DNA of 64,000 nucleotides from an uncultured Chromatiales bacterium (GTDB lineage: Bacteria; Pseudomonadota; Gammaproteobacteria; SZUA-140). The notes under the pieces are model-generated. The model was given only the letters and a program-made list of their open reading frames with translations. It searched no databases and was not told the origin of the DNA. Positions 31,608-64,000 of the stretch are shown in pieces; positions within the stretch are counted from its first letter, which is position 1; each line of letters starts with the position of its first letter. A program made the translations under genes and the position numbers. The stretch spans positions 6,990 to 70,989 of the forward strand of contig CAYTGL010000011.1 in assembly GCA_964437335.1 (NCBI GenBank), written 5' to 3'.

Positions 31608-32660
31608 TCATCGTCGGCGAGCACTCCACGCAGCCATCGAACGGACCCTGCTGTCACTTACGGCAAACTCTCTTCGATTCAGAACCTTGCCAGCCAAGCT
31701 CTTGATCTCAGCCACCATTTTGCCACCACGTGAGATGGTCAGCAGGATGTAGGTGTCTTCGGCAGCGAGGAATTTCGAGTGCGGGTCAGGATACTGGCTA
31801 CCCTTGCCGCTGAGCGAAGTGTTGTAATACGCCAGCCCGTCCACCTCCGCCAACTCGGCAAAATAGCCGAAGCCTGTAATGCAACAGGTGCCTCGACGAA
31901 ACAGCTCGTGCCATTGTTTCTGAGCCTGATTGCGAATGCTGGAATTCCGCTCGTTGTACAGCGTGACGACCGAGCCAGGCATGAGCTGCTCATACCAGCG
32001 GAATTGCTCGGAATCCTCGCCAAACGGATGGCAGGTCTGCCAGGTGGTTCCCAAGTCGGAAATGTGGTTGAAATCCAGGGCGATGAACCGCAGATCGAAC
32101 TCAGGCACATCAAAGTGCCATTTCCATTCGTCCCCAGGCAGTTCAAAGAAGCGACGGAAGGCGGTTGCCTCGATATCGTAAACCGGCTCGGCTGGCGGTT
32201 TGCTTCCCCGACGCCGCACTTCTCGGTCGTGGTTACCCAAGACAGGCATGAAGGGCGTCGAGCGGAATAACGCCGGATACGCATCGATCAGCTTCGCATA
32301 CGGCTCAATGCAATCGATGTTGCCCTCGCCGCACGTTTGCCAAATGCTGGCAATGTTGTCGCCTGCCGTCAGTAGCAGGTGAACGTCTTCTTTCAAAAGC
32401 GCCGACAAGTCAGGCTTGCCCTGCCAATCGGCGACGACAGCCACCTGCAGATCGTTGGTGGGATAAGCCTTGAATGTTGCATCCACTGACCGCTGGGTGC
32501 CGGTGCTGACCGAGTAATGGTAAGTGGCGTCTCGATGCTTCAGTGGAATTTCAACGTGGTGCAGCGTTGTGCTTTCTTCGATCCGCACCGTTTCGCCGTA
32601 ATCTGCGGTCAAGCCAAAGCTCACCACGGAGTCACCCGGCTTGTCGGTCATCCAGTTCAC
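31608..32660 (-). CDS. Calcineurin-like metallophosphoesterase
   Basis: Motifs [23 protein letters not shown] (metallophosphoesterase motifs I-III). Confidence 0.7.
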
Positions 32661-35464: not shown

Positions 35465-35545
35465 CCTGTTGCCGGTCTCACTCTAAGCCAAACTCTCTTC
35501 GATTCCGCACCTTGCCAACCAAGCTCTTGATTTCAGCCCCCATCT
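35465..35545 (-). pseudogene. Remnant of the 3' end of a metallophosphoesterase paralog
   Basis: About 70 bp at ~85% identity to 31660..31730; translates to GGKMGAEIKSLVGKVRNRREFGLE* versus [25 protein letters not shown]... at the C-terminus of the 31608..32660 gene. Confidence 0.6.
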
Positions 35546-35569
35546 TGCCGCCACGTGCAGTTAGTCCTC

Positions 35570-52563: not shown

Positions 52564-53367
52564 ATGATTAAGAAGTTTCTAGGATCGGCCGCGTTGCTGC
52601 TGCTGATCGATGGCGTGGTGTTCGGCTTCGGCGGAACGCGGTGGACCTACGACTCGGCCCGCACGGCGCTGGGCATGGGCCGCGATTCCATCCGGCAAAA
52701 TATGCCGATCGGGTTCGAAATCGAACGGGCCAAGCAACAGTTGGCCGATGTTCGCCCCATGATCACCAACCATAAGCACCGGATGCTCGAAGAAGAGGCA
52801 CAACTGGCCATCCTCGATCGCCAGATCACGGCCCAAGAGAAGAAGCTCACCGAAGATCGCGGTGAAATCCTGATTCTCAAGAACGACCTCACCTCGGGCA
52901 AAGAGTCGTTCCGCTACGGCGGCCGGATCTACACCGTGTCCGACGTCAAGCAAGACATGACCCGCCGCTTCGATCGGCTCAAAACCAACGAGGCCACGGT
53001 GGAAAAAATGCGGCAAACGCGCACGGCGCGCGAGCGGCGGTTGGCGGCCCTGCAAGATAAGGTGGCGGCCATGGAAGCCTCCGTCCGGCAGATGGATGCC
53101 GAAGTCGGCAATCTCGAAGCCCAATTGCAACTCGTCGAAGCAGCCGAGGCGGGATGCGAGTATAATTTGGACGATAGCCCGCTCAGCCGACTCAAATCCC
53201 TCATGGCCGATCTCCAAACCCGCGTGGAAGTTCGGGCACGGATGGCCGACAGCGAGGTCGACGCTTATCAAGAGATCCCGGTCGGGGCGAGCCATTCCGA
53301 CAGCATTGTGGACGAAGTCACTCAATACTTCGAAAACAACCACGGTCAGGTTGTGCTCTCGAATTAG
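52564..53367 (+). CDS. Membrane-anchored coiled-coil protein
   Basis: N-terminal TM (FLGSAALLLLIDGVVFGF), then long heptad-rich region; start at the second Met of ORF 52537. Confidence 0.55.
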   Translation: MIKKFLGSAALLLLIDGVVFGFGGTRWTYDSARTALGMGRDSIRQNMPIGFEIERAKQQLADVRPMITNHKHRMLEEEAQLAILDRQITAQEKKLTEDRGEILILKNDLTSGKESFRYGGRIYTVSDVKQDMTRRFDRLKTNEATVEKMRQTRTARERRLAALQDKVAAMEASVRQMDAEVGNLEAQLQLVEAAEAGCEYNLDDSPLSRLKSLMADLQTRVEVRARMADSEVDAYQEIPVGASHSDSIVDEVTQYFENNHGQVVLSN

Positions 53368-53542
53368 ATCGACCCACAAGTACCAAAGTATCGAACGCAA
53401 AGGCACGATCACGCCAGGCAACCGCAGCGATTGGGGTTGTCTGGCGTGTGAAGCCATCCGCGGTTTGGGGGCTGGACGGCGGCCGCGGAGAGGCAATTTC
53501 GCTGGTCCACAGGTCACACGGTTTTCCGCTGGCACGAGATCG

Positions 53543-55147
53543 ATGATGCTCCAGTCTTGGCGAATCAAGATCAAAGAAGTCGAAGCCGCCATGCAAGCGC
53601 AGCGGCTCGATGAAGCCCAAGCGTTGCTGCAGGAGGGCGATCTGATCAGCTTTGCGCCCGCCAAGCGTTTGCTCTCCAAGCTGGGCAAGTTGTTCATTAA
53701 ACGCGGCAGCGAGCAAACCCGGTTGGGCAACACCGCCGCCGGTTGGCACGACCTGCGGGCTGCCCGGCAGGCCGGCGCGTTGCCCAAGCAACTGCAACCC
53801 TTGCAAGAGGCGCTGGCCCAACGCTCGCTAACCGAAGCCAATGCCGCCTTGGCCGCGTTGAATATCGATGCGGCTGCCGAAGCGGTGCGCCTGTTGGATC
53901 GTCGGGGCGTCGACAGTGAGCCGTTTCGGCAGTTGAAGCAAGTCGTGGGGCTCTTGGAGTCCGCTCGCGGACAGATCGAATGCGGCCGATTCGGGGCTGC
54001 CGCCGGCGCGGTGGAAACCGCGGCCCGCCTGCGGAGCGATTTAGCCTCGCTCACCAGGTGGCGATGGCAAATTCAAAAAGATTTGCAGGCCTGGCAGGCG
54101 TTGCGCGGGCAACTTTTTGTCGCCTGGGAGAAAGCCGATTGGGCCGGGGTACTAATTCCGGCCGACCAAATGCTGGCCATGGCGCCCCGCGAGGCCCACA
54201 CCTTGCAAATGCGAAATCACGCGTGGGATCGGCTGAAAAGTCACTCGCCAACCGCCACTTACCCTGTGCATGGTTTTCCGCAAATTGCCGCGGCCGAATC
54301 GCACCAGCAGCCCAACTCCAAACCAAACATGCGCAGCGCCCATCAACCACCAAACCAGCGAGGCCTATTCAACGACCGTGGCCCAAACGGCCATCTCTTG
54401 AATGGCAACGGCGGCCTCCCCCGTTCACCGCGGATTCAACCCGACCTGGGGCAAATTCGCCTCGCCTCGGTGGGCGCCCGGCGTTCGTTGTCGGCCGCGG
54501 CCTCGCCAGCCGCGCCGGAGAAACCGCCAGCGGGCAAGCGGTTCGTGATTTGGGTCGATGGCGTCGGCGGGTTTCTCGTGTGCGAGGGGAACGAAGTCAC
54601 GCTGGGCCAGCCCGTGGCCGGTGTCGATATTCCCATCCTGGCCGACCTGTCCCGCCAGCACGCCGTGATTCGCCGTTCGGGCGAAGGCTACCTGCTCGAT
54701 CCCCGCCGCGAGGCCCGTGTCAACGGCCGCCAGGTCAGCGCCGTAACCATGCTCGGCAGCGGCAGCGAGCTAAGATTGGGGGCGGGCGTCACCTTGCGAT
54801 TCAGCCGGCCCAATTCGCTCAGTCACAGCGCGCGGCTCGATTTTGTCAGCCGGCATCGCACCCAGCCAGCCGTCGATGGCGTGCTGTTGATGGCCGATTG
54901 CCTGATTCTGGGCGCAGGGCCGAATTGCCATGTGCATTGTCCGCGCTGGCCGCGGCAAGTGATGCTGTTTTACCAGCAAGGCCAATTGTGCTGCCGTAGC
55001 GAGGGGCCTTTGGAAATTGACGGGAAGTTGCTCGCCCCAGGGAAAAACGGCGGTTGCCAAACCGTTATTCATCGCGGGGCTCGCATTGAAACAGACGCCT
55101 TCGCGTTGGTTCTGGAGGAATTGGCCGACCTGCCGGCGGGTTCTTGA
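53543..55147 (+). CDS. FHA-domain protein
   Basis: FVIWVDGVGGFLVCEGNEVTLGQ...DIPILADLSRQHAVIRRSGEGYLLDPRREARVNGRQV is an FHA fold signature; start taken at MMLQSW (the upstream part of ORF 53096 overlaps the previous gene out of frame). Confidence 0.65.
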   Translation: MMLQSWRIKIKEVEAAMQAQRLDEAQALLQEGDLISFAPAKRLLSKLGKLFIKRGSEQTRLGNTAAGWHDLRAARQAGALPKQLQPLQEALAQRSLTEANAALAALNIDAAAEAVRLLDRRGVDSEPFRQLKQVVGLLESARGQIECGRFGAAAGAVETAARLRSDLASLTRWRWQIQKDLQAWQALRGQLFVAWEKADWAGVLIPADQMLAMAPREAHTLQMRNHAWDRLKSHSPTATYPVHGFPQIAAAESHQQPNSKPNMRSAHQPPNQRGLFNDRGPNGHLLNGNGGLPRSPRIQPDLGQIRLASVGARRSLSAAASPAAPEKPPAGKRFVIWVDGVGGFLVCEGNEVTLGQPVAGVDIPILADLSRQHAVIRRSGEGYLLDPRREARVNGRQVSAVTMLGSGSELRLGAGVTLRFSRPNSLSHSARLDFVSRHRTQPAVDGVLLMADCLILGAGPNCHVHCPRWPRQVMLFYQQGQLCCRSEGPLEIDGKLLAPGKNGGCQTVIHRGARIETDAFALVLEELADLPAGS

Positions 55148-55171
55148 ATGCCGTAGCGGTCTCGATAGAGA

Positions 55172-57286
55172 ATGGTAAACATGATGAACCTGCGAGCCAC
55201 CACCACCGAAGAGCCTCGGGAGCCGATGGGCGCCGCCACGCGGTTCACCTATCCCGGCGGTTCGCGGCCACTCAGCGGCTACACCATCAAACGCGCCGTC
55301 GGCCAGGGGGGCTTTGGCGAGGTGTATTACGCCACCAGCGATGGCGGCAAAGAAGTCGCCCTCAAGCTGATCCGCCGCAATCTCGATGTCGAGCTGCGGG
55401 GAGTCTCGCACTGTCTGAACCTCAAGCACCCCAACCTGGTCGATCTGTTCGACGTCCGCCGCGACGACCGCGACGACGCCTGGGTCATCATGGAGTTTGT
55501 CCGCGGCAAAAGCCTCGAAGACAGCATCGCCGCCCACCCCCAAGGCATGCCCACCCCCGACGTGCTGCGGTGGTTCCTGGCCGTGGCCTCGGGCGTGGCC
55601 TACCTCCACGACCAGGGCATCGTGCATCGCGATCTCAAGCCGGCCAACATCTTCGATGACCAAGGCGCCATCAAAATTGGCGACTATGGCCTCAGCAAAT
55701 TCATCTCCTCCAGCCGACGCAGCGGGCAAACCGAAAGCGTGGGCACCGTGCATTACATGGCCCCCGAAATCGCCAACGGGCGCTACGGCAAAGAAATCGA
55801 TATCTACGCCCTGGGCGTGATGCTCTACGAAATGCTCACCGGAAACGTGCCCTTTGAAGGCGAAAGCGTGGGCGAGGTGCTCATGAAGCATCTCACCGCC
55901 GAACCCAACGTGCAGGGCCTACCCACGGCATTTCGCCCAGTGGTGGCCCGAGCACTGACCAAAGACCCCGAAAAGCGGTTTTCCACCGTGGCCGAAATGC
56001 TCACGGCGATGGCGGCCGGCGGATTGCCGGTGGATCGCGCCCTGACAGAAATGAGCGCGCGCGGCGAAGCGTTGCCGCCCAGCGCGCCCTCGGGGCAAGC
56101 TCCCGATAGCAGCGCGGTTCCACCCCAACGGCCGGGCCGCATGGTCTCGCCGCCGCCCGCCGCGAGACCGCCATCCGCGCAGCCAACCACACCACCGCTA
56201 CAACAAGAACCGGTTTGGAACGTGGTTCGCAACGCCACGTACGGCGTTGTGCAAGCCTGGAAGACGACCGACCTGCCGACGCCGCTGAAGGTGTTGATTC
56301 TGTTCGCCTCGTTTGGCGTGCTGGTGCTGTTCGCGCCCATGTGGTTCACGTTGGTTACTTCGCTGCTGGTGTTGTACGCCGTTTACTTTGTGATTCGGGC
56401 AGGCGTGCTGGGCGTGCGGCAGGGTATGGCGCGAGGGCAGTCGCCGCTGGGCGGTTGGTCTCCACCCCCCGCGCCCATTCCAGGTCAGCTCGTGGGGTCG
56501 CCGCCAACCGTGCCGGTGGGAAGTTTCGCCGCGGACAAGCCGATTGCCGGCGTGGCGGCGGCTCAGCAAGTGGCCAGTCCTTCCGCGCAGCCTCAGCGGG
56601 CCAAGCGTCGCTGGAACGCAACGCCGGGCTCGGCCTTACTGCCGCCGCGCGGCGTGCGCGAACGCATCACCGAACTGCTCGGCTCGCTGGCTCTGGGCGC
56701 CGTCGTCGCCACGGCCGTGAGCCTGATCCTGGTGCTGCTGCTCGGCAACCGCAGCCAGGTGGAACAATGCGTGTGGTTGGCGCTGGTAGGCGTAACGGGA
56801 ACGTGGGCTCTGCTTATCGCCGGCAAGTTTTGGGAAGGCCGCGCAGGCGAGCCCATCGTGCGGCGGTTTGTGCTGCTGCTGATTGGTTTAGGCATCGGTC
56901 TGGCGGCTTACGGCGTGGACCAGGCCCTGCTGGTCGATCTGCCGATCACCTCGCGGGACTTCCAATCCGAGCATCAGCCCAACTCGTTCGAAGCGGCCGA
57001 ATTGTTTTCCGCGGGCCAGCCGAACTTGAAACTATACCTGGCCTACTTTGGGTTCCTGTTCCCCGTGCTGCGGTGGTGGAAGATGGTCGACCCGGCCCGC
57101 TGGACGCGGTTCAGCATCCTCTCCACGCTGCTATGCGTGGGCTGGGCGCTGGTGCTCTGGCTGGCCTGGCCCTTCCCGCAAGCCTGGGGAATCATGGCGG
57201 CTTGCACGATCGCCGTCTCGGTGCAACTGGCCAGCCCCTGGGTGGGCGAACCAAACCGCCGCGCCGCCCGTGCTCAATCCGCATAA
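55172..57286 (+). CDS. Hanks-type Ser/Thr protein kinase with C-terminal multi-pass membrane region
   Basis: GQGGFGEVY (Gly loop), AVK-equivalent VALK, HRDLKPANI (catalytic loop), DYG (DFG-equivalent), YMAPE; C-terminal half hydrophobic. Confidence 0.85.
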   Translation: MVNMMNLRATTTEEPREPMGAATRFTYPGGSRPLSGYTIKRAVGQGGFGEVYYATSDGGKEVALKLIRRNLDVELRGVSHCLNLKHPNLVDLFDVRRDDRDDAWVIMEFVRGKSLEDSIAAHPQGMPTPDVLRWFLAVASGVAYLHDQGIVHRDLKPANIFDDQGAIKIGDYGLSKFISSSRRSGQTESVGTVHYMAPEIANGRYGKEIDIYALGVMLYEMLTGNVPFEGESVGEVLMKHLTAEPNVQGLPTAFRPVVARALTKDPEKRFSTVAEMLTAMAAGGLPVDRALTEMSARGEALPPSAPSGQAPDSSAVPPQRPGRMVSPPPAARPPSAQPTTPPLQQEPVWNVVRNATYGVVQAWKTTDLPTPLKVLILFASFGVLVLFAPMWFTLVTSLLVLYAVYFVIRAGVLGVRQGMARGQSPLGGWSPPPAPIPGQLVGSPPTVPVGSFAADKPIAGVAAAQQVASPSAQPQRAKRRWNATPGSALLPPRGVRERITELLGSLALGAVVATAVSLILVLLLGNRSQVEQCVWLALVGVTGTWALLIAGKFWEGRAGEPIVRRFVLLLIGLGIGLAAYGVDQALLVDLPITSRDFQSEHQPNSFEAAELFSAGQPNLKLYLAYFGFLFPVLRWWKMVDPARWTRFSILSTLLCVGWALVLWLAWPFPQAWGIMAACTIAVSVQLASPWVGEPNRRAARAQSA

Positions 57287-57333
57287 AATCGAGGATTAAT
57301 GAACTTCCCGATGATTTCGTCATTCCCGCGCGA

Positions 57334-57372
57334 ACCTCGTCATTCCCGCGAAGGCGGGAATCCAGACGCGGC
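57334..57372. repeat. Short palindromic element GTCATTCCCGCGAAGGCGGGAATCCAG (ATTCCC-N8-GGGAAT), with a half copy just upstream
   Basis: Same core recurs at ~58958..59023 (two cores), 60375..60402 and 62877..62904. Confidence 0.6.
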
Positions 57373-57504
57373 GGATACGACACTTCAATCACCATCGGCC
57401 CGGATCGTGATTGATGAATCGGCACGTTATTCATCGTCGCCTACCTACCCTTTAAGAGTCCATTACGCCCGAGCATCATTTGCCCGAGCATAAGGAACAC
57501 TGAG

Positions 57505-58932
57505 ATGCACGAGATCCTCTTCGACGCCGAGCAAGCCAACGCCGCCTCGCCGCTCCGGGGAAGCGCCGTGCAAGCCCTGCACGACTTTGGTCTGCCGGGT
57601 ATCGTGCTGCTGATCCTGGCCTCGGGCGTGCTGATCTATGCCTTCACGCGCAACGTCCGCCTGGCGATTTCGGCCACGCTGGCTGGCTCGTTCATGCTCG
57701 TCGCCTCGGGCTGGGTGTTTCAGTTGGCGCGCGCACCTCAAACGGCCATGGTCGAGCTTCCCCAGGGTGGCACCGTTCAAGTGTGGCCCGAAGAACCGCG
57801 TCATCAAATCGAGATTCCCCCAGCCGCCGCCGCGCCCAGCGAGGGCCTCCTCAAACTTACACTGGCCACCGAATCACCCGACCTGGTGATCTACACCGTG
57901 GCGGGTTCCCAGAGAGCCGAGGCCGCGGCGGCCATCGACCAACTGGTGGGAGCCGCGGGCCAAGGCTACAAGTTTTCGGCAGCCCACGCGGGCGATCAAC
58001 GCATTTATACACGCACGCAAACGGATCAAACCTTACGATCGTTCACGCTCACGCCCCGCTCGGTGGAACTGCAATTCGCCAAGCCGCCGACCAAGGAACA
58101 GTTGGCGGCCATTGACGCCGTGATTGAGCCACTGGCCGAAACGTGGAAGCTCACGCAGAAAAGCGGCTGGACCGGCCAGGGTACAATCCGAACCCAACAA
58201 CTGGCCAGCCAGGGAAGCGACGCCACCAGCCTTGCCTCCGGCTCGATGGCGAGCGGTTCAAGTGCTACCCGCGCCAATGGCAATGTTGCCGTGGACGATG
58301 CCGTCAACGTTGCCGTGGACGATAAGCTTTGGCTAGCAACGGCGAGGGCTGCTTCACGAGGTGCGTCCCCAGGCAAGCCGGCTTCGCAAGAGTGGATTCG
58401 TATGGCCGATCAGCCCGGCCGCATGGTCGAAGGCGCCTATGTCAAGGTGGCCAGCAGCGGCCGGTTTCTCTTGGCGCACGAATGCCAGCCTTCGCTGCAA
58501 GCGGCCATCGCCAACGAGGTTCGCAACTATGTGGGCCTCCGCTTGGGGACGAAAGCCGAACAGCGCATCGATGTGCCGAGGGAATGGATCGAATCGCACG
58601 TGGTCAAAGCCGGCCCCCTGGAGCAAGACGTAGCCAGCGCCACGGTCGATGGCGGCGGCAAACGGCTGCATGCCCTGCTCGTGTTTGATCAGCGAGCTCA
58701 AGAAGACCTCAAAGCCATGCTGCGCGACCGGCAGGTGCAAAACCGCAGTCTCTTCGCCATGCTGGTCCTCGGTGGCCTGGTATCGGTTTTCGGCGGCGTG
58801 TTCGGATACTTGAAAGTGGATACGGCAACCAAGGGCTACTACTCCGCCCGGTTGAAGTTCGCCCTGGCGGCGACGCTTTTTTTGGTTTCGGCGGCGATAG
58901 TTTGGGCGGTGAGGAGCGACCTGTTTTGGTAG
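57505..58932 (+). CDS. Hypothetical membrane protein (475 aa)
   Basis: N- and C-terminal TM helices; Ala/Gln-rich middle. Confidence 0.5.
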   Translation: MHEILFDAEQANAASPLRGSAVQALHDFGLPGIVLLILASGVLIYAFTRNVRLAISATLAGSFMLVASGWVFQLARAPQTAMVELPQGGTVQVWPEEPRHQIEIPPAAAAPSEGLLKLTLATESPDLVIYTVAGSQRAEAAAAIDQLVGAAGQGYKFSAAHAGDQRIYTRTQTDQTLRSFTLTPRSVELQFAKPPTKEQLAAIDAVIEPLAETWKLTQKSGWTGQGTIRTQQLASQGSDATSLASGSMASGSSATRANGNVAVDDAVNVAVDDKLWLATARAASRGASPGKPASQEWIRMADQPGRMVEGAYVKVASSGRFLLAHECQPSLQAAIANEVRNYVGLRLGTKAEQRIDVPREWIESHVVKAGPLEQDVASATVDGGGKRLHALLVFDQRAQEDLKAMLRDRQVQNRSLFAMLVLGGLVSVFGGVFGYLKVDTATKGYYSARLKFALAATLFLVSAAIVWAVRSDLFW

Positions 58933-58957
58933 AATTGACCCGTGCGGCCGCGAAGGC

Positions 58958-59023
58958 GGGAGTTTGTCATTCCCGCGAAGCCTGCCCTCGTGAAGACGGG
59001 GGGCGGGAATCCAGGGCGGCGGA
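58958..59023. repeat. Two adjacent copies of the ATTCCCGCGAAG-type palindromic element
   Basis: gtcattcccgcgaagcctgccctcgtgaagacggggggcgggaatccag. Confidence 0.55.
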
Positions 59024-59144
59024 TTGAGCGTGACTATCAGAATCACACCGAACTCAAATTCTGGCCCAGGCAGGTAATTCTTCAACACTTCGCAAAACAG
59101 CCAGACCGCAGGCATCTCCTCAATAAAACCACTCTCAGGTCGCC

Positions 59145-59783
59145 ATGGCTCTTAGCGAATATGATCGCGTGTTGATTGGTCGCATTCGCCAGTCCCAAGA
59201 CGAAGCGTGGGATGAAATGATTGCCCGCTTCGAAGGCCGGCTGCTGGCGTTTGTCGATAGCCGCCTTCATAACCGGGCAGCCGCCGAAGACGTGGTGCAA
59301 GAAACCTTCATTGGGTTCCTGACCAGCCTCCCCAACTACGACGAGCGGCGTCCGTTGGAAAGCTGGCTGTTCAGCATCGCGGCCCACAAGCTCACCGATC
59401 ACCTGCGCCGCGAAGGCCGCCGGCCGCGCGTGCCCCTCGTGGCCCAAGGCTCAAGCAACGCCAGTAGCTGGGACGTGCCCGGCGCCGCCCGCGGCGCCAG
59501 CAGCATTTTGCGCAGCGGCGAGCGGCAACGGTTGGAGCGCGACGCGCTCACCACGGCCATGGCTGAAATCCTCGACCACTGGCGCAGCCGAGGCGACTGG
59601 GAAAAGGTGCGCTGCCTGGAACTGCTGCTCGTCCGCGGTTGGGCCAACAAAGACGCCGCCACCCAACTAGGGCTCACCGAGCAAGTGGTGGCCAACTACA
59701 AGTTCGACTTCCTCTCCAAGCTGCGCACGGCAGTTCGCAAGCAAGGGCTGAACCACGACGTGTTCCCGGAGCTCAAACCTTAG
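59145..59783 (+). CDS. ECF-family RNA polymerase sigma factor
   Basis: Region 2 (VVQETFIGFL, SWLFSIAAHKLTDHLRR) and region 4 HTH (VRGWANKDAATQLGLTEQVVANYKFDFLSKLR). Confidence 0.8.
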   Translation: MALSEYDRVLIGRIRQSQDEAWDEMIARFEGRLLAFVDSRLHNRAAAEDVVQETFIGFLTSLPNYDERRPLESWLFSIAAHKLTDHLRREGRRPRVPLVAQGSSNASSWDVPGAARGASSILRSGERQRLERDALTTAMAEILDHWRSRGDWEKVRCLELLLVRGWANKDAATQLGLTEQVVANYKFDFLSKLRTAVRKQGLNHDVFPELKP

Positions 59784-59908
59784 GGATCGAGAACCATATA
59801 ACGAAGGGTGGCTGGGGTCTGGTTGCCGCTCGCCAGTCGTGGGCTACCAGGCAGCCGCTGCCGGCAACCAGCCCCCAGGCGAATCCGGCCCCACGCGATT
59901 TCTGAAAG

Positions 59909-60337
59909 TTGCGAGTTTTGCCAGATAAATTGCCTATGAACATCACTTCCGAAGAACTCGAAGCCTACCTCGACGAAGGTCTCGCCGCGGCCGATATGGC
60001 GCGGATTGAAGACGCCCTGAGGGCCGATCCGGGGCTGACCTCGCAGTTAGCCGAGGTTCAAGCCCGCCGCGATACCGACGGCCACAGCCTCGGCAGCATT
60101 TGGCGGCGCGAGCGGCTCACCTGCCTGTCCCGCGATCAATTCGGCGCCTACCTGCTCGGCACGCTCGAACCCGAGATTGCCGACTACGTGGACTTCCACT
60201 TGGAAACAATCGGCTGCCGCTACTGCCAGGCCAACCTGGCCGACCTGCGGGAACAGCAGGCCCAGCAAGCCACGGGAACCGAAACGCGGCGACGCAAATA
60301 TTTTCAGTCGAGCGTGGGCTATTTGAAACCAAAATAA
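59909..60337 (+). CDS. Putative zinc-binding anti-sigma factor (142 aa)
   Basis: HxxxCxxC motif (DFHLETIGCRYCQ) characteristic of ZAS-type anti-sigma N-terminal domains; immediately downstream of the ECF sigma gene. Confidence 0.55.
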   Translation: MRVLPDKLPMNITSEELEAYLDEGLAAADMARIEDALRADPGLTSQLAEVQARRDTDGHSLGSIWRRERLTCLSRDQFGAYLLGTLEPEIADYVDFHLETIGCRYCQANLADLREQQAQQATGTETRRRKYFQSSVGYLKPK

Positions 60338-60552
60338 ATGGTGATCAGGATCGAGGATTAAATAATGTCCCAATGTACTCGTCATTCTTGCGAAGGCGGG
60401 AATCCAGCTTACGTAGGTCGTGCACTGCATGACACAATGCGGGTCGATACTATATCATCGGCAATCTTGGTTCGGCGTTGAAATCGAATGCACGGCGTTG
60501 AGGGCATCGTGCGAGCCCCAGTGGTAACATGGAGCGTGATTAGCGATTCCAC

Positions 60553-60585
60553 CCGCATTGTGGCAGGCAAGTAAGCCTGCCCTAC
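60553..60585. repeat. REP-like hairpin element CGCATTGTGGCAGGCA(a/g)(g/a)A(a/t)GCCTGCCCTAC
   Basis: Six copies: 60553..60585, 60686..60719, 61931..61961 (inverted), 62060..62092, 62130..62163, 63055..63087; contains the inverted repeat GGCAGGC ... GCCTGCC. Confidence 0.7.
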
Positions 60586-60891
60586 GGGAACTGGCCTGGG
60601 TGCGGCCCGAGGGATCATAGACTGAACGCTCACAGTGACATGCAATCGAGCCCCTGCGCGAATAGAAAAGAGATTGGCGATTCAGACCGCATTGTGGCAG
60701 GCAGAATGCCTGCCCTACCTTTGCTCTTGCATTCTACATGAAACGCCTGGAAAGCAATGTGTGTCACCCTACTTGGGAAGAGAATCGCATGCGTTCTGCC
60801 TCATTTCGACCTGCATTTGGTGGGTACAAGCACAGCCACCCTACGAAATGCACCCAGGCTACGCTTGCTGAATGGTTACATTATTGGCTCG

Positions 60892-61758
60892 TTAAGGTAG
60901 GTCGTGATATCGAATCAGGACGGCAAGATTGTCATCCTTGAAACTCTGGAGTAGTTTTCGCCCAAAGACACACAAGGACTTTTCCCAAGGATGTCCAAAT
61001 ATGCCGCTTTCCAGATCAGGTGAAATAAAGACGTGGTAGTTTCCTATGGGTGCGACGCTTATGGGCCAAGAACTCACATCCAAAATACGAGAGTCATGTG
61101 GATCAAAACGGTAGCATTGGTGATTCAAGTCCAACGCAAAGACGTAGTCTCCTTTAGACGTGCATTGCTGAAACGCACTGATGACAGTCCTCCTAAGAGA
61201 CTCTTCGGCCAGCTGAAAGGCCAAGCTATCCTCGGACTGCAATGTAAGTAATGGACCCACGCCCCAAGTCAGTGCCCCAGGTGGCTCATTGATTCCAGGC
61301 CATGACGACGGATCAGCGCCACGTCGAAAGGAGAATTCCGCCGTAAACCACTCCCATATACGTACCATTTCTTCATCGGACAGCCCCTTCCATCCTCTCT
61401 TCGCTCGATCCTGTTCCCTAAACAATTCTCCGTCTTTGCACCACTGCCTGAAATCCGACGGCTTTAGTAAGAACTCTCGCTGAATCTTATCGATGTTGCC
61501 GACTGCATAAGGCTGCTCCAAGCAATTCATGAGTCGCTCACATAGATCACCCAGATGATCGTCCCGACCAACGTGAAAGAAACCATTCAATCCCATCAGA
61601 AACCAACCAGATGGACGCTTGGCAAGACTGAAGAGTCTCTTGTTGGAAGGTTGAGCGACGATGGTGAGTTGTTCGCCATGATCGATAGAAGGCTCAACTA
61701 TGCAGTTGATGCCTCTTTTCTCAATGGTTCTTCGAATCTTATCGTAGTCAGAGGGCAT
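60892..61758 (-). CDS. Hypothetical protein (288 aa) between the repeat copies
   Basis: Lower-GC ORF flanked on both sides by REP-like elements; no motif recognised. Confidence 0.5.
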   Translation of the reverse strand: MPSDYDKIRRTIEKRGINCIVEPSIDHGEQLTIVAQPSNKRLFSLAKRPSGWFLMGLNGFFHVGRDDHLGDLCERLMNCLEQPYAVGNIDKIQREFLLKPSDFRQWCKDGELFREQDRAKRGWKGLSDEEMVRIWEWFTAEFSFRRGADPSSWPGINEPPGALTWGVGPLLTLQSEDSLAFQLAEESLRRTVISAFQQCTSKGDYVFALDLNHQCYRFDPHDSRILDVSSWPISVAPIGNYHVFISPDLESGIFGHPWEKSLCVFGRKLLQSFKDDNLAVLIRYHDLP

Positions 61759-62177
61759 TTAGCACACGCATGAGCGAAAGAGAAACTCAAAATGCAGGAC
61801 CATTATGTATCCACGGGTCTTCAATGATTAGCCAAGAATTGTAGTGTTCGTTGGTTAGATATATCGTACTGGTGTTGCGATCAAACACGAATCGCCGACC
61901 ATCGCCAACCTTATCCGTGATGTAGTGAATGTAGGGCAGGCTGCTGCCTGCCACAATGCGGGTAGAATCGCCCCTCCCGGTCGCACGCGAAGGGGCGATG
62001 CGGCCAAGAGCCAAGACCATGCAAAAGACTCCGCCAAGAGCGACCATGACACAACCTCGAACCGCATTATGGCAGGCAGAACGCCTACCCTACATTGGCT
62101 GCGCAAATAGAGAAGAGATTGGCGATTCGAACCGCATTGTGGCAGGCAGAATGCCTGCCCTACCTTTGCTGGGCATT

Positions 62178-62285
62178 ACCGAGCAAGTGGTGGCCAACTA
62201 CAAGTTCGACTTCCTCTCCAAGCTGCGCACGGCAGTTCGCAAGCAAGGGCTGAACCACGACGTGTTCCCGGAGCTCAAACCTTAG
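62178..62285 (+). pseudogene. Duplicated 3' fragment of the ECF sigma factor gene (last ~36 codons)
   Basis: Identical to 59676..59783; no upstream coding continuation (preceded by a REP-like element). Confidence 0.7.
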
Positions 62286-62410
62286 GGATCGAGAACCATA
62301 TAACGAAGGGTGGCTGGGGTCTGGTTGCCGCTCGCCAGTCGTGGGCTACCAGGCAGCCGCTGCCGGCAACCAGCCCCCAGGCGAATCCGGCCCCACGCGA
62401 TTTCTGAAAG

Positions 62411-62839
62411 TTGCGAGTTTTGCCAGATAAATTGCCTATGAACATCACTTCCGAAGAACTCGAAGCCTACCTCGACGAAGGTCTCGCCGCGGCCGATATG
62501 GCGCGGATTGAAGACGCCCTGAGGGCCGATCCGGGGCTGACCTCGCAGTTAGCCGAGGTTCAAGCCCGCCGCGATACCGACGGCCACAGCCTCGGCAGCA
62601 TTTGGCGGCGCGAGCGGCTCACCTGCCTGTCCCGCGATCAATTCGGCGCCTACCTGCTCGGCACGCTCGAACCCGAGATTGCCGACTACGTGGACTTCCA
62701 CTTGGAAACAATCGGCTGCCGCTACTGCCAGGCCAACCTGGCCGACCTGCGGGAACAGCAGGCCCAGCAAGCCACGGGAACCGAAACGCGGCGACGCAAA
62801 TATTTTCAGTCGAGCGTGGGCTATTTGAAACCAAAATAA
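62411..62839 (+). CDS. Second, identical copy of the putative anti-sigma factor
   Basis: 142-aa translation identical to 59909..60337; inside repeat copy 2. Confidence 0.55.
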   Translation: MRVLPDKLPMNITSEELEAYLDEGLAAADMARIEDALRADPGLTSQLAEVQARRDTDGHSLGSIWRRERLTCLSRDQFGAYLLGTLEPEIADYVDFHLETIGCRYCQANLADLREQQAQQATGTETRRRKYFQSSVGYLKPK

Positions 62840-63316
62840 ATGGTGATCAGGATCGAGGATTAAATAATGTCCCAATGTACTCGTCATTCTTGCGAAGGCG
62901 GGAATCCAGCTTACGTAGGTCGTGCACTGCATGACACAATGCGGGTCGATACTATATCATCGGCAATCTTGGTTCGGCGTTGAAATCGAATGCACGGCGT
63001 TGAGGGCATCGTGCGAGCCCCAGTGGTAACATGGAGCGTGATTAGCGATTCCACCCGCATTGTGGCAGGCAAGTAAGCCTGCCCTACGGGAACTTGGGCC
63101 GTAAGGACTTTTATGTCGACGATTTTTTGAGCCGGTACGAAGATATGTGCAACACTTTCCCAAAGCCTGAGTGGGCTGCCTCGCAAATGCTTTCGAAAAC
63201 CCCCTTGCCTGATTATCTCGCTGAAGGTTTGCGGTTGCTTTCAGAGGATGGCATTGATGTGGACAGTCTGTAGATGTAACCAAGTACAGCGTGTGCGATG
63301 CAGGATAAACAATAAG

Positions 63317-63973
63317 ATGCACTTCAAGATACTTGTTCTTTTCGCTCCCGTGCTGATTTGGTTGGGTGTTGTGGGCTATACGGCCGATTCGGCAAGAAGT
63401 GCTCCCCAACCACTGAAGCTTGCCTGGGAGCAGTTAGTGCCGGATAATGAAGAACTCGACGCTCGTGAACAGTTGACAAGTTTTGGCCGGTATGAGTTAC
63501 AGAACAAGATGGTCCGGCAGGCGCAAAAGGATAACGAAAAGGCAATGTTTGCCATTCGGCTCCGCGTATCCGGCCTCGTCGAGCCCATGTTGAATCGTTC
63601 GGTATCGTCTCCTAACCAGCCGCTGGCACTTCTGCATGGGCAATATGTTGACCAGGAACACCAGGATCGCTTCGGCAAAGACGCTACGATCGGTATCTGG
63701 GTACGTGACTTTAGCTCCGTGAAAAACCTAAAAATCGGCGACGAGTTCGAGTTGCAGGGAAAGATTATCTACGTGGTGTATCACGTCGCCGATGATGTCG
63801 ACATCGTCAAGCACATCTGGAGACAACGGGACATCAACACGAGCGTTGCCTACTTGCAGCCACACCTCACCGGTTTCTCGCGTGACGTGCGAATCTATAT
63901 GGTAAACCCGAAAGTCGTCGCGGTAGCGAAAGTACAGTCTTCGAAAGATCGCGAAAGCCAGAACCAGAAATAG
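63317..63973 (+). CDS. Secreted hypothetical protein (start MHFKILVLFAPVLIWLGVVG)
   Basis: Signal peptide-like N-terminus; ORF-track entry 63248 trimmed to the Met preceding the hydrophobic segment. Confidence 0.5.
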   Translation: MHFKILVLFAPVLIWLGVVGYTADSARSAPQPLKLAWEQLVPDNEELDAREQLTSFGRYELQNKMVRQAQKDNEKAMFAIRLRVSGLVEPMLNRSVSSPNQPLALLHGQYVDQEHQDRFGKDATIGIWVRDFSSVKNLKIGDEFELQGKIIYVVYHVADDVDIVKHIWRQRDINTSVAYLQPHLTGFSRDVRIYMVNPKVVAVAKVQSSKDRESQNQK

Positions 63974-64000
63974 CCACGATTGGCGGGTTCCATCGACTGA

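Follow-up and report, generated by a model that had tools for sequence, protein, structure and literature searches.

A perfect 917-bp direct repeat carrying an anti-sigma-like gene beside a conserved kinase-ECF sigma block: a probable, very young structural variant

The stretch of DNA analysed here (64,000 nucleotides, hereafter the window) contains a conserved gene block that opens with a Ser/Thr protein kinase possessing a C-terminal membrane region (55172-57286, plus strand; Pfam Pkinase, E = 1e-51) and closes with a sigma/anti-sigma pair. With a GC content of 63%, the kinase-sigma block is a compositional outlier against the 54% background of the window. The ECF sigma gene is intact (59145-59783, plus strand) and encodes a protein of 212 amino acids in which both ECF-type sigma-2 and sigma-4 regions are present (Pfam Sigma70_r2, 4e-17; Sigma70_ECF, 6.6e-6; TIGR02937, 7.6e-16). 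More than 7000 homologues of this sigma factor were found, and partial sigma fragments are not on record among them. Downstream lies a small gene (59936-60337, plus strand) encoding 133 amino acids from its ATG, or 142 from a TTG at 59909; the exact 133-residue product is already on record. The protein scores 24.6 bits against Pfam zf-HC2 (cut-off 22.2), and its motif C-x24-H-x5-C-x2-C, formed by C63, H88, C94 and C97, is invariant in a 47-sequence alignment, having x5 where the canonical ZAS motif H-x3-C-x2-C has x3. The top Foldseek matches are MucA and RslA, weak at E = 5-8, and a sequence search of the PDB returned no significant match. The label 'anti-sigma' that an earlier, sequence-only reading of this DNA had applied is backed by the zf-HC2 match, the invariant motif and conserved synteny, and is probable. 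Judged from its sequence, this zinc-finger (zf-HC2/ZAS-like) protein is a probable anti-sigma factor, and we refer to it as anti-sigma-like.

The kinase-sigma-anti-sigma block is syntenic across approximately 150 orthologous planctomycetal loci ranging from Pirellulales to Phycisphaerae, with the kinase gene accompanying sigma in most of them; judged by its closest relatives, the present locus belongs to an uncultured, Pirellulales-like planctomycete. In these relatives the sigma and anti-sigma-like genes are adjacent and co-oriented, and the gap between them (median 46 nt, often 2-30 nt; 91 pairs) is spaced like that of an operon. Ser/Thr kinase neighbourhoods have been described for ECF sigma factors of groups ECF43, ECF59-62, ECF217, ECF267 and ECF283 (Casas-Pastor et al. 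2021, PMC7826278). As in those groups, the sigma gene here resides in a conserved Ser/Thr kinase neighbourhood, one that is widespread in Planctomycetota; unlike them, the block adds, immediately behind sigma, a gene for a small, conserved protein of ZAS-like type, and this is the gene that is duplicated.

Base-by-base comparison of positions 59676-60592 (copy A1) with 62178-63094 (copy A2) gave 917 identities in 917 nt at an offset of 2502 bp. The coordinates and perfect identity claimed by the sequence-only reading are therefore correct, and the mismatches that it had associated with an old duplication number zero. Identity over this length cannot arise by chance, and the pair is the sole long direct repeat within the window. 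Mismatches start immediately outside both ends of the run. Furthermore, the 100-nt flanks of the two copies align no better than shuffled sequence, both on the left (score 8.0; mean of shuffled controls 8.35) and on the right (8.0; shuffled controls 7.95), hence the boundaries of the repeat are sharp. The repeat opens with the first nucleotide of codon 178 of sigma, and copy A1 accordingly encloses the last 35 sigma codons (178-212) with the stop (59676-59783), the intergenic region, the intact anti-sigma-like gene and a REP-rich tail. In copy A2 the same sigma segment stands as a remnant of 35 codons plus stop (62178-62285, plus strand; translation TEQVVANYKF...PELKP, then stop) that lacks region 2, most of region 4 and a promoter. 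Behind it a second intact anti-sigma-like ORF was indeed found, as had been proposed (62411/62438-62839, plus strand); the gene at 62438-62839 is identical to the first and is present on an independent Logan contig, L002.

The two copies are separated by spacer B (60593-62177, 1585 bp), the sole gene of which encodes a DUF2716-family protein of 288 amino acids (60892-61758, minus strand; Pfam PF10898, E = 1.4e-38). REP-like hairpins lie on either side of this ORF, in agreement with the earlier description of an unrelated gene bracketed by REP-like elements. Its description as 'low-GC' applies relative to the 63% kinase-sigma block but not relative to the window background (gene 48.6%, spacer 50.5%). 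Only four homologues of the DUF2716 protein were recovered among 5.8 billion proteins, and these occupy unrelated gene contexts devoid of REPs, which identifies B as accessory DNA. No match to this protein was found in PHROG, PADLOC or the PDB, and searches of the literature turned up no papers on either DUF2716 or SRR16798009. On the 3' side of A2, region C (63095-64000, plus strand) is unique DNA with a 218-aa ORF (63317-63973) that has no family match. A search for structured RNA in the region gave no Rfam match at E values up to 1.

REP-like elements of the first type take the form GGCAGGCA-loop-TGCCTGCC, with a hairpin built on an 8-bp GC stem (GGCAGGC.../...GCCTGCC). Six copies occur in the 64 kb, all clustered within 2.5 kb of this region and four of them in B. 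Element R1 (60538-60592, plus strand) closes copy A1, the last conserved bases of the six-copy alignment (..CCCTACGGGAACT) being the end of the repeat. Within B there follow a 72-nt REP-containing unit, D2a (REP R2; 60654-60725, plus strand), which is 94% identical to 62099-62170; element R3 in inverted orientation (61928-61972, minus strand); and the adjacent units R4 and R5/D2b (62029-62170, plus strand), of which R4 (62029-62100) is degenerate and R5/D2b spans 62099-62170. Seven nucleotides of ambiguous origin, GGGCATT (62171-62177), lie between R5 and A2 at the novel joint. A second REP-like type, with the core TCATTCTTGCGAAGGCGGGAATCC, is found at 60350-60407 (plus strand), and another copy of it follows the kinase gene.

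Several kinds of mobile element were considered for B. It contains neither a transposase nor an integrase gene (60593-62177), its ends carry no terminal inverted repeats and the window holds no further copy of it. Insertion of an IS, transposon or MITE was rejected given the lack of inverted repeats and transposase and a flanking repeat of 917 bp that far exceeds any target-site duplication. An integrative element that had entered a gene 3' end and brought a replacement 3' end was rejected for want of an integrase in 60593-62177. Likewise, Pfam, PHROG, PADLOC, NCBIfam and PDB searches gave no support, beyond DUF2716, to B as a mobile element, defence or phage gene. The REPs themselves could point to a different route, in which B, or B plus A2, would be a non-autonomous cassette cut at REP 3' ends by a RAYT, an IS200/IS605-like enzyme or a cassette recombinase, the duplication being a by-product of that REP-specific reaction. 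The coincidence of the right end of A1 with the last conserved base of R1, the termination of B in R5 and the confinement of all six copies to these 2.5 kb would fit such a scheme. We nevertheless consider it very unlikely, as no transposase or recombinase gene occurs in B or in the examined part of the window, the left boundary of copy 1 falls in coding sequence without a REP, the two putative target sites have different bases (..AACT versus ..GCTC) and DUF2716 homologues elsewhere have no REPs.

Tandem duplications mediated by REPs, with a join point derived from recombination between two REPs, were reportedly described by Shyamala, Schneider and Ames in 1990. The present arrangement resembles them in the clustering of REP-like hairpins at the A-B-A boundaries, in a right end that coincides with a REP end and in a joint situated 7 nt past a REP. 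It differs in that the left end, at 59676 in sigma codon 178, has no REP and in that R5 shows no mixture of R1 with another element, matching R2 along its full length at 94% identity. REP-mediated tandem duplication was rejected on these two grounds.

Comparison with relatives placed A-B-A in this lineage alone. Every related locus with a detected anti-sigma gene, among the approximately 150 inspected, carries a single such gene after sigma and has neither DUF2716 nor p218, and spacer B finds no counterpart there; on this basis lineage specificity is established. The closest sister contig, L083 (86-91% nucleotide identity), has a single sigma and a single anti-sigma gene on the 2.4 kb that it covers, without A-B-A. 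Scans of genome and metagenome contigs for near-identical strains with an empty site gave nothing closer than 87% sigma identity, and exact-protein look-ups returned only Logan contigs of SRR16798009 and the one sister contig, L083.

As the conserved sigma reading frame runs unbroken across the joint at the left of A1 (S-A1), the novel joint of the structure must be B-A2, at 62177/62178. This joint lies in sigma coding sequence, and the end of B has no more than 10 nt in common with any of the observed sigma alleles, which is too short for a de Bruijn (k-mer) mis-join. With no longer stretch shared with any alternative partner, a mis-join of the assembly graph at B-A2 is ruled out. Hence, some molecule carrying the B-A2 joint must exist. 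The S-A-B-A-C order is putative, as are the number of its copies and how common it is in the population. Of the three origins offered by the sequence-only reading, a recent duplication, a recent insertion and an assembly artefact, the artefact in its simple mis-join form falls away, and the recent event is favoured by the full identity and the sharp ends.

The contig could still misstate the structure in a less direct manner. If A were a repeat node and B a loop traversed once, most cells would carry S-A-C, and the A-B joints would stem from a variant carried by a minority, from a circle of 2502 bp released by excision or from a tandem (A-B)n array of some other copy number. The source is a single contig that extends past the window, does not appear among the GTDB species representatives and is apparently metagenome-derived, and a mixture of S-A-C with a minor A-B form would yield the same linear order. 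In the independent Logan assembly of SRR16798009, contig L001 matches internal sequence of B and contig L002 the A-C joint, each at 100% identity. This k = 31 assembly is fragmented at REPs (L086), yet L002, which starts inside the repeat, crosses the A-C joint unbranched. Such a contig would not be expected from equal coverage of A-to-B and A-to-C in that run, and it may be that the B form is a minority or that coverage is low. Moreover, a look-up of junction-spanning ORFs found no Logan contigs across A-B (60592/60593) or B-A2 (62177/62178), and the intact sigma protein is not on record from Logan. Against a traversed loop stands the B-A2 joint itself, which must occur in reads given its 10 nt or fewer of shared sequence. 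In addition, low coverage together with tip clipping also accounts for an unbranched L002, and an integrated form is the only possible origin of a circle that has no replicon, so that the duplication joint would be biological even then. We therefore regard an erroneous contig structure as possible but rather unlikely.

Identity at 917 of 917 positions, abrupt ends and the absence of residual similarity in the flanks together argue for one recent event and not for an old, eroded duplication. Identity would lose its value for dating if an older duplication had been kept uniform by gene conversion (concerted evolution). The 7-9 nt to the left of A2 (CTGGGCATT) match sister-species sigma codons at 8 of 9 positions and copy 1's own at 5 of 9, and could represent a non-converted edge; the D2 units within B are, furthermore, merely 94% alike. 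However, the same 7 nt also resemble the sequence that follows other REP copies, homology does not decay past either boundary and the nearest sister, L083, has no duplication on the covered stretch. A recent event is also the simpler explanation for zero differences over 917 bp that include intergenic and REP sequence, and we judge concerted evolution to be improbable here. Hypermutation, or a different allele, at the left boundary was rejected too, as the differences from L083 that cluster at 59661-59673 have an equal counterpart at 59525-59539 and the 7-nt flank is ambiguous.

Taken together, the account that we favour, with moderate confidence, is that A-B-A is a real, evolutionarily very young and ordinary structural variant, produced by an illegitimate join and homologous recombination. 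It does not constitute a new mechanism or a new kind of system. The ancestral order would have been that of the relatives, namely kinase, p475, ECF sigma, anti-sigma-like gene and variable REP-rich DNA. A single illegitimate joint would have fused the end of B (REP R5 plus 7 nt) to sigma codon 178, and the A-B unit would then have become a fixed part of the chromosome through homologous recombination in its A segment. The same product would be reached if a 2502-bp circle of A+B entered A by a single, Campbell-type crossover, or if an unequal sister-chromosome exchange left B at the join point. Either way, the complete sigma/anti-sigma pair would be followed by the DUF2716 gene and then by a sigma stump devoid of a promoter, behind which the anti-sigma-like gene would stand intact for a second time. 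Both the order of events and the recombination route are what we infer from the present arrangement.

Reams and Roth are said to have set out a general mechanism in which a join-point duplication is followed by amplification or collapse. In gene-amplification models from Salmonella, E. coli and Acinetobacter baylyi (e.g. PMC9997567, PMC11111574), spontaneous duplications have an illegitimate join point and undergo RecA-dependent amplification or collapse. A-B-A resembles such duplications in its identical direct repeats, its one low-homology novel joint, its expected instability and its restriction to a single lineage. It departs from a simple head-to-tail duplication in that the unit is A+B (2502 bp) and only A is doubled (A-B-A-C), which implies either a position of B at the join point or the integration of an A+B circle. 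As in Campbell-type integration, heterologous DNA is framed by perfect direct repeats of the homologous segment, with native joints on the outside and the closure point of the circle at one of the inner joints; unlike it, A-B-A has no replicon, integrase or vector-like functions, and the 2.5-kb A+B circle is hypothetical. Since the flanking repeats are 917 bp long and perfect, the variant is expected to be unstable. RecA could delete B plus one copy of A, or amplify A-B, and the population is possibly heterogeneous.

Copy 2 lacks the 5' part of sigma and everything upstream of it, and we infer that it is poorly expressed. The altered stoichiometry of sigma to anti-sigma suggested by the sequence-only reading is therefore doubtful, the gap in relatives being operon-like (median 46 nt) and copy 2 having lost the sigma promoter region. 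A sigma-70 promoter scan, of a kind not informative for this phylum, gave weak matches only and none before the copy-2 anti-sigma-like gene. One may also imagine A-B-A as a selected, RecA-driven copy-number module, in which (A-B)n varies the dose of the anti-sigma-like and DUF2716 genes against a single sigma, but we hold this to be highly improbable. Were it true, expansion and collapse of (A-B)n would let subpopulations hedge their bets by tuning a kinase/ECF-sigma pathway that Planctomycetota have conserved, and this rheostat would have been seeded at a hotspot rich in REPs.

If the favoured account of a young structural variant is correct, the locus would show a rearrangement in an uncultured planctomycete at a very early stage, with accessory DNA captured at a join point beside a conserved regulatory operon. 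It could call for caution in annotating the contig, on which a fragment of sigma is spurious and the anti-sigma gene appears twice. Furthermore, A-B-A could mark strain-level heterogeneity, and it could provide a natural test of the tolerance for extra anti-sigma copies.

A base-by-base comparison at an offset of 2502 bp showed positions 59676-60592 and 62178-63094 to be a single unbroken identical run of 917 nt, with mismatches starting directly outside it on either side. The sequence-only reading was therefore correct in its coordinates and its base-for-base identity (917/917), and inspection for mismatches between the copies found zero within the 917 nt. The repeat was also recovered by a repeat finder and by self-BLAST, and there is no other long repeat within the 64-kb window. 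Beyond each repeat end the 100-nt flanks align no better than shuffled sequence; both boundaries are thus sharp. A shorter direct repeat of 74 nt, 88% identical (31659-31732 and 35484-35557, spaced 3.8 kb), is perhaps a paralogous gene segment.

We refer to the repeat as A (copies A1 and A2), to the spacer as B, and to the upstream and downstream DNA as S and C. A opens within an ECF sigma gene (59145-59783, 212 aa; Pfam Sigma70_r2, 4e-17, and Sigma70_ECF; TIGR02937), on the first base of its codon 178, so that A holds 35 sigma codons and the stop, followed by a 152-nt intergenic region, a 133-aa anti-sigma-like ORF (copy 1, 59936-60337; copy 2, 62438-62839) and a closing 255-nt REP-rich tail. 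As had been proposed, the second ORF is intact behind a sigma remnant. Spacer B (60593-62177, 1585 bp) carries a single gene, on the minus strand, encoding a 288-aa DUF2716 protein (60892-61758; Pfam E = 1.4e-38), and C, from 63095 onward, carries a 218-aa ORF for which Pfam and NCBIfam searches returned no family match. The description of B as low-GC stands relative to the 63% kinase-to-sigma block and not otherwise, its 50.5% (50.9% in C) comparing with a window background of 54%.

That this unrelated gene is flanked by REP-like elements was borne out, with copies on either side. The element (~50 nt, consensus GATTGGCGATTCnnACCGCATTGTGGCAGGCA-loop-TGCCTGCCCTACnnnnnCT, with a hairpin of 8 bp GC) occurs four times in B, whose core is bracketed by two REP-containing 72-nt units 94% alike. 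A fifth copy, R1, forms the extreme end of A, its last conserved CT being the repeat's final bases, and the sixth is the duplicate of R1 in A2; the element was not found elsewhere in the 64-kb window. All six copies of the GGCAGGCA-loop-TGCCTGCC element and one degenerate copy lie within 2.7 kb (60425-63087), and among them are inverted pairs (60426/60548 and 61928/62057), spaced by 85-100 nt, that look like REPIN-like doublets. Another family of REP-like elements, TCATTCCCGCGAAGGCGGGAATCC, occurs at 57340-57363, 58963-58992 and 60382-60405 (= 62884-62907), 3' of the genes for the kinase, a 475-aa protein (p475) and the anti-sigma-like protein. Its elements are probably multi-copy in the genome, since independent Logan contigs break there.

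The duplicated ORF probably encodes an anti-sigma factor. Its Pfam zf-HC2 match (24.6 bits) is barely over the gathering score of 22.2, and the NCBIfam anti-sigma model matches weakly. In a 47-member family alignment C63, H88, C94 and C97 are invariant, giving C-x24-H-x5-C-x2-C, which is ZAS-like but has x5 where the canonical H-x3-C-x2-C has x3. The AlphaFold model is all-helical (pLDDT 79); its top PDB structural matches, with E-values that are not significant, are the MucA cytoplasmic domain and RslA, and a sequence profile search of the PDB gave no match. The family has an extra N-terminal helical half, without a transmembrane segment. Genomic context is the strongest argument for the assignment: in the 91 loci measured, the anti-sigma-like gene comes after the sigma gene, at a median distance of 46 nt and frequently of only 2-30 nt.

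Scanning a genome collection with the sigma protein and a metagenome collection with the anti-sigma protein gave 160 related loci. The order of a 683-aa protein (up683), a Ser/Thr kinase with a C-terminal membrane part, in some cases p475, sigma and anti-sigma is kept across Pirellulales, Isosphaerales, Gemmatales and Phycisphaerae, and synteny of the block from up683 to the ZAS-like gene (53096-60337) extends over about 150 planctomycetal loci. None of the 160 loci has more than one anti-sigma copy, and no homologue of DUF2716 or the 218-aa protein lies within 10 kb of any of them, which marks the duplication and B as lineage-specific. The closest sequence, a sister contig from another sequencing run (L083, 79-91% nucleotide identity), likewise carries p475, sigma and a single anti-sigma gene; its similarity to the window is gone ~12 nt beyond the anti-sigma stop, and it stops 64 nt past that gene. 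Homologues of the DUF2716 protein are few: a search of 5.8 billion proteins detected only four, of which the two closest sit in unrelated contexts without REPs. The duplication and B lie where conserved genes yield to fast-changing, REP-rich DNA.

The source is a single NCBI contig of 78,376 bp, which does not belong to the GTDB species representatives and probably derives from a metagenome bin. An independent assembly of run SRR16798009 (Logan, k=31) yielded three contigs 100% identical to the window: L086 (57352-58995), L001 (60836-61957, interior of B) and L002 (62309 to beyond 64000). L002 confirms the A|C joint (63094|63095), and a look-up of junction-spanning ORFs recovered no contig across A|B (60592|60593) or B|A2. 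L002 begins within the repeat and passes its end unbranched, which is unexpected for equal A-to-B and A-to-C coverage; low coverage combined with tip clipping could explain this, as could a B-containing form that is a minority in the run. No recognisable repeat lies at the contig ends 59807/62309 and 60836, which may mark variation between strains or breaks in coverage. At the novel joint, 62177|62178, the sequence is ...CCTACCTTTGCTGGGCATT|ACCGAGCAAG...; it has at most 10 nt in common with any sigma allele compared, which excludes a de Bruijn mis-join, so there must be a molecule in which sigma codon 178 follows directly on B. The interpretation initially offered is supported in part: of the recent event or assembly artefact envisaged, a young duplication-insertion is the favoured reading, with identical copies and sharp edges, and a simple mis-join is ruled out. 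Three states fit the graph S to A, A to B, B to A and A to C equally well: S-A-B-A-C in integrated form, an (A-B)n array produced by amplification, and S-A-C accompanied by integrated or excised forms in the minority.

The intact, conserved sigma frame across S|A1 (59675|59676) makes that joint ancestral, and B|A2 is the illegitimate one. A|B and A|C part at one identical base, the 3' end of R1, as predicted for a single event. The geometry is that expected when a 2502-bp A+B circle, closed at 62177|59676, recombines with the chromosomal A in one homologous crossover or, equivalently, when unequal sister-chromosome exchange duplicates A and leaves B where the two copies are joined. An older duplication kept identical by gene conversion is unlikely, its edges being without decaying homology. 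Immediately left of copy 2, 7-9 nt agree more closely with the sister's sigma codons than with those of copy 1 (GGGCATT, 62171-62177: 6/7 with L083, 3/7 with copy 1); they also resemble bases after other REP copies, and the way differences from the sister cluster at this spot is not unusual. REP-REP tandem duplication is ruled out by a left end of copy 1 without a REP and by R5, the REP near the end of B, not being a hybrid. Transposon insertion is ruled out by the lack in B of terminal inverted repeats and transposase and of further copies in the window, a target-site duplication by the far too great length of 917 bp, and a recognisable integrative element by the lack of an integrase. A-B-A is best read as one more case of a familiar kind of event, a duplication-insertion of recent origin whose join point is illegitimate, located at a REP-rich hotspot.

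For several ECF groups, a link between the sigma factor and Ser/Thr kinases has been described before (PMC7826278). The kinase and the anti-sigma-like partner suggest two regulatory layers for one ECF sigma. The sigma stump, without region 2 and most of region 4, should be unable to act as a sigma factor, and an ORF reading REP sequence into it (61956-62285) has no called-gene record in an exact-protein look-up. Only the 152-nt intergenic region is kept upstream of copy 2, which has lost the 5' portion of sigma as well as the DNA preceding that gene, the expected promoter site. A scan with the sigma-70 consensus, not informative for this phylum, found nothing before copy 2. Given this and the operon-like arrangement of the two genes in relatives, the altered sigma to anti-sigma stoichiometry suggested earlier is possible but doubtful. 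It is tempting to consider a selected, copy-number-variable anti-sigma module as a bet-hedging device, a notion to which we give very little credence. Direct repeats that are perfect over 917 bp and separated by 1.6 kb make good substrates for RecA, so ready collapse or amplification would be expected, and this predicted instability of A-B-A agrees with the heterogeneity hinted at by the Logan contigs.
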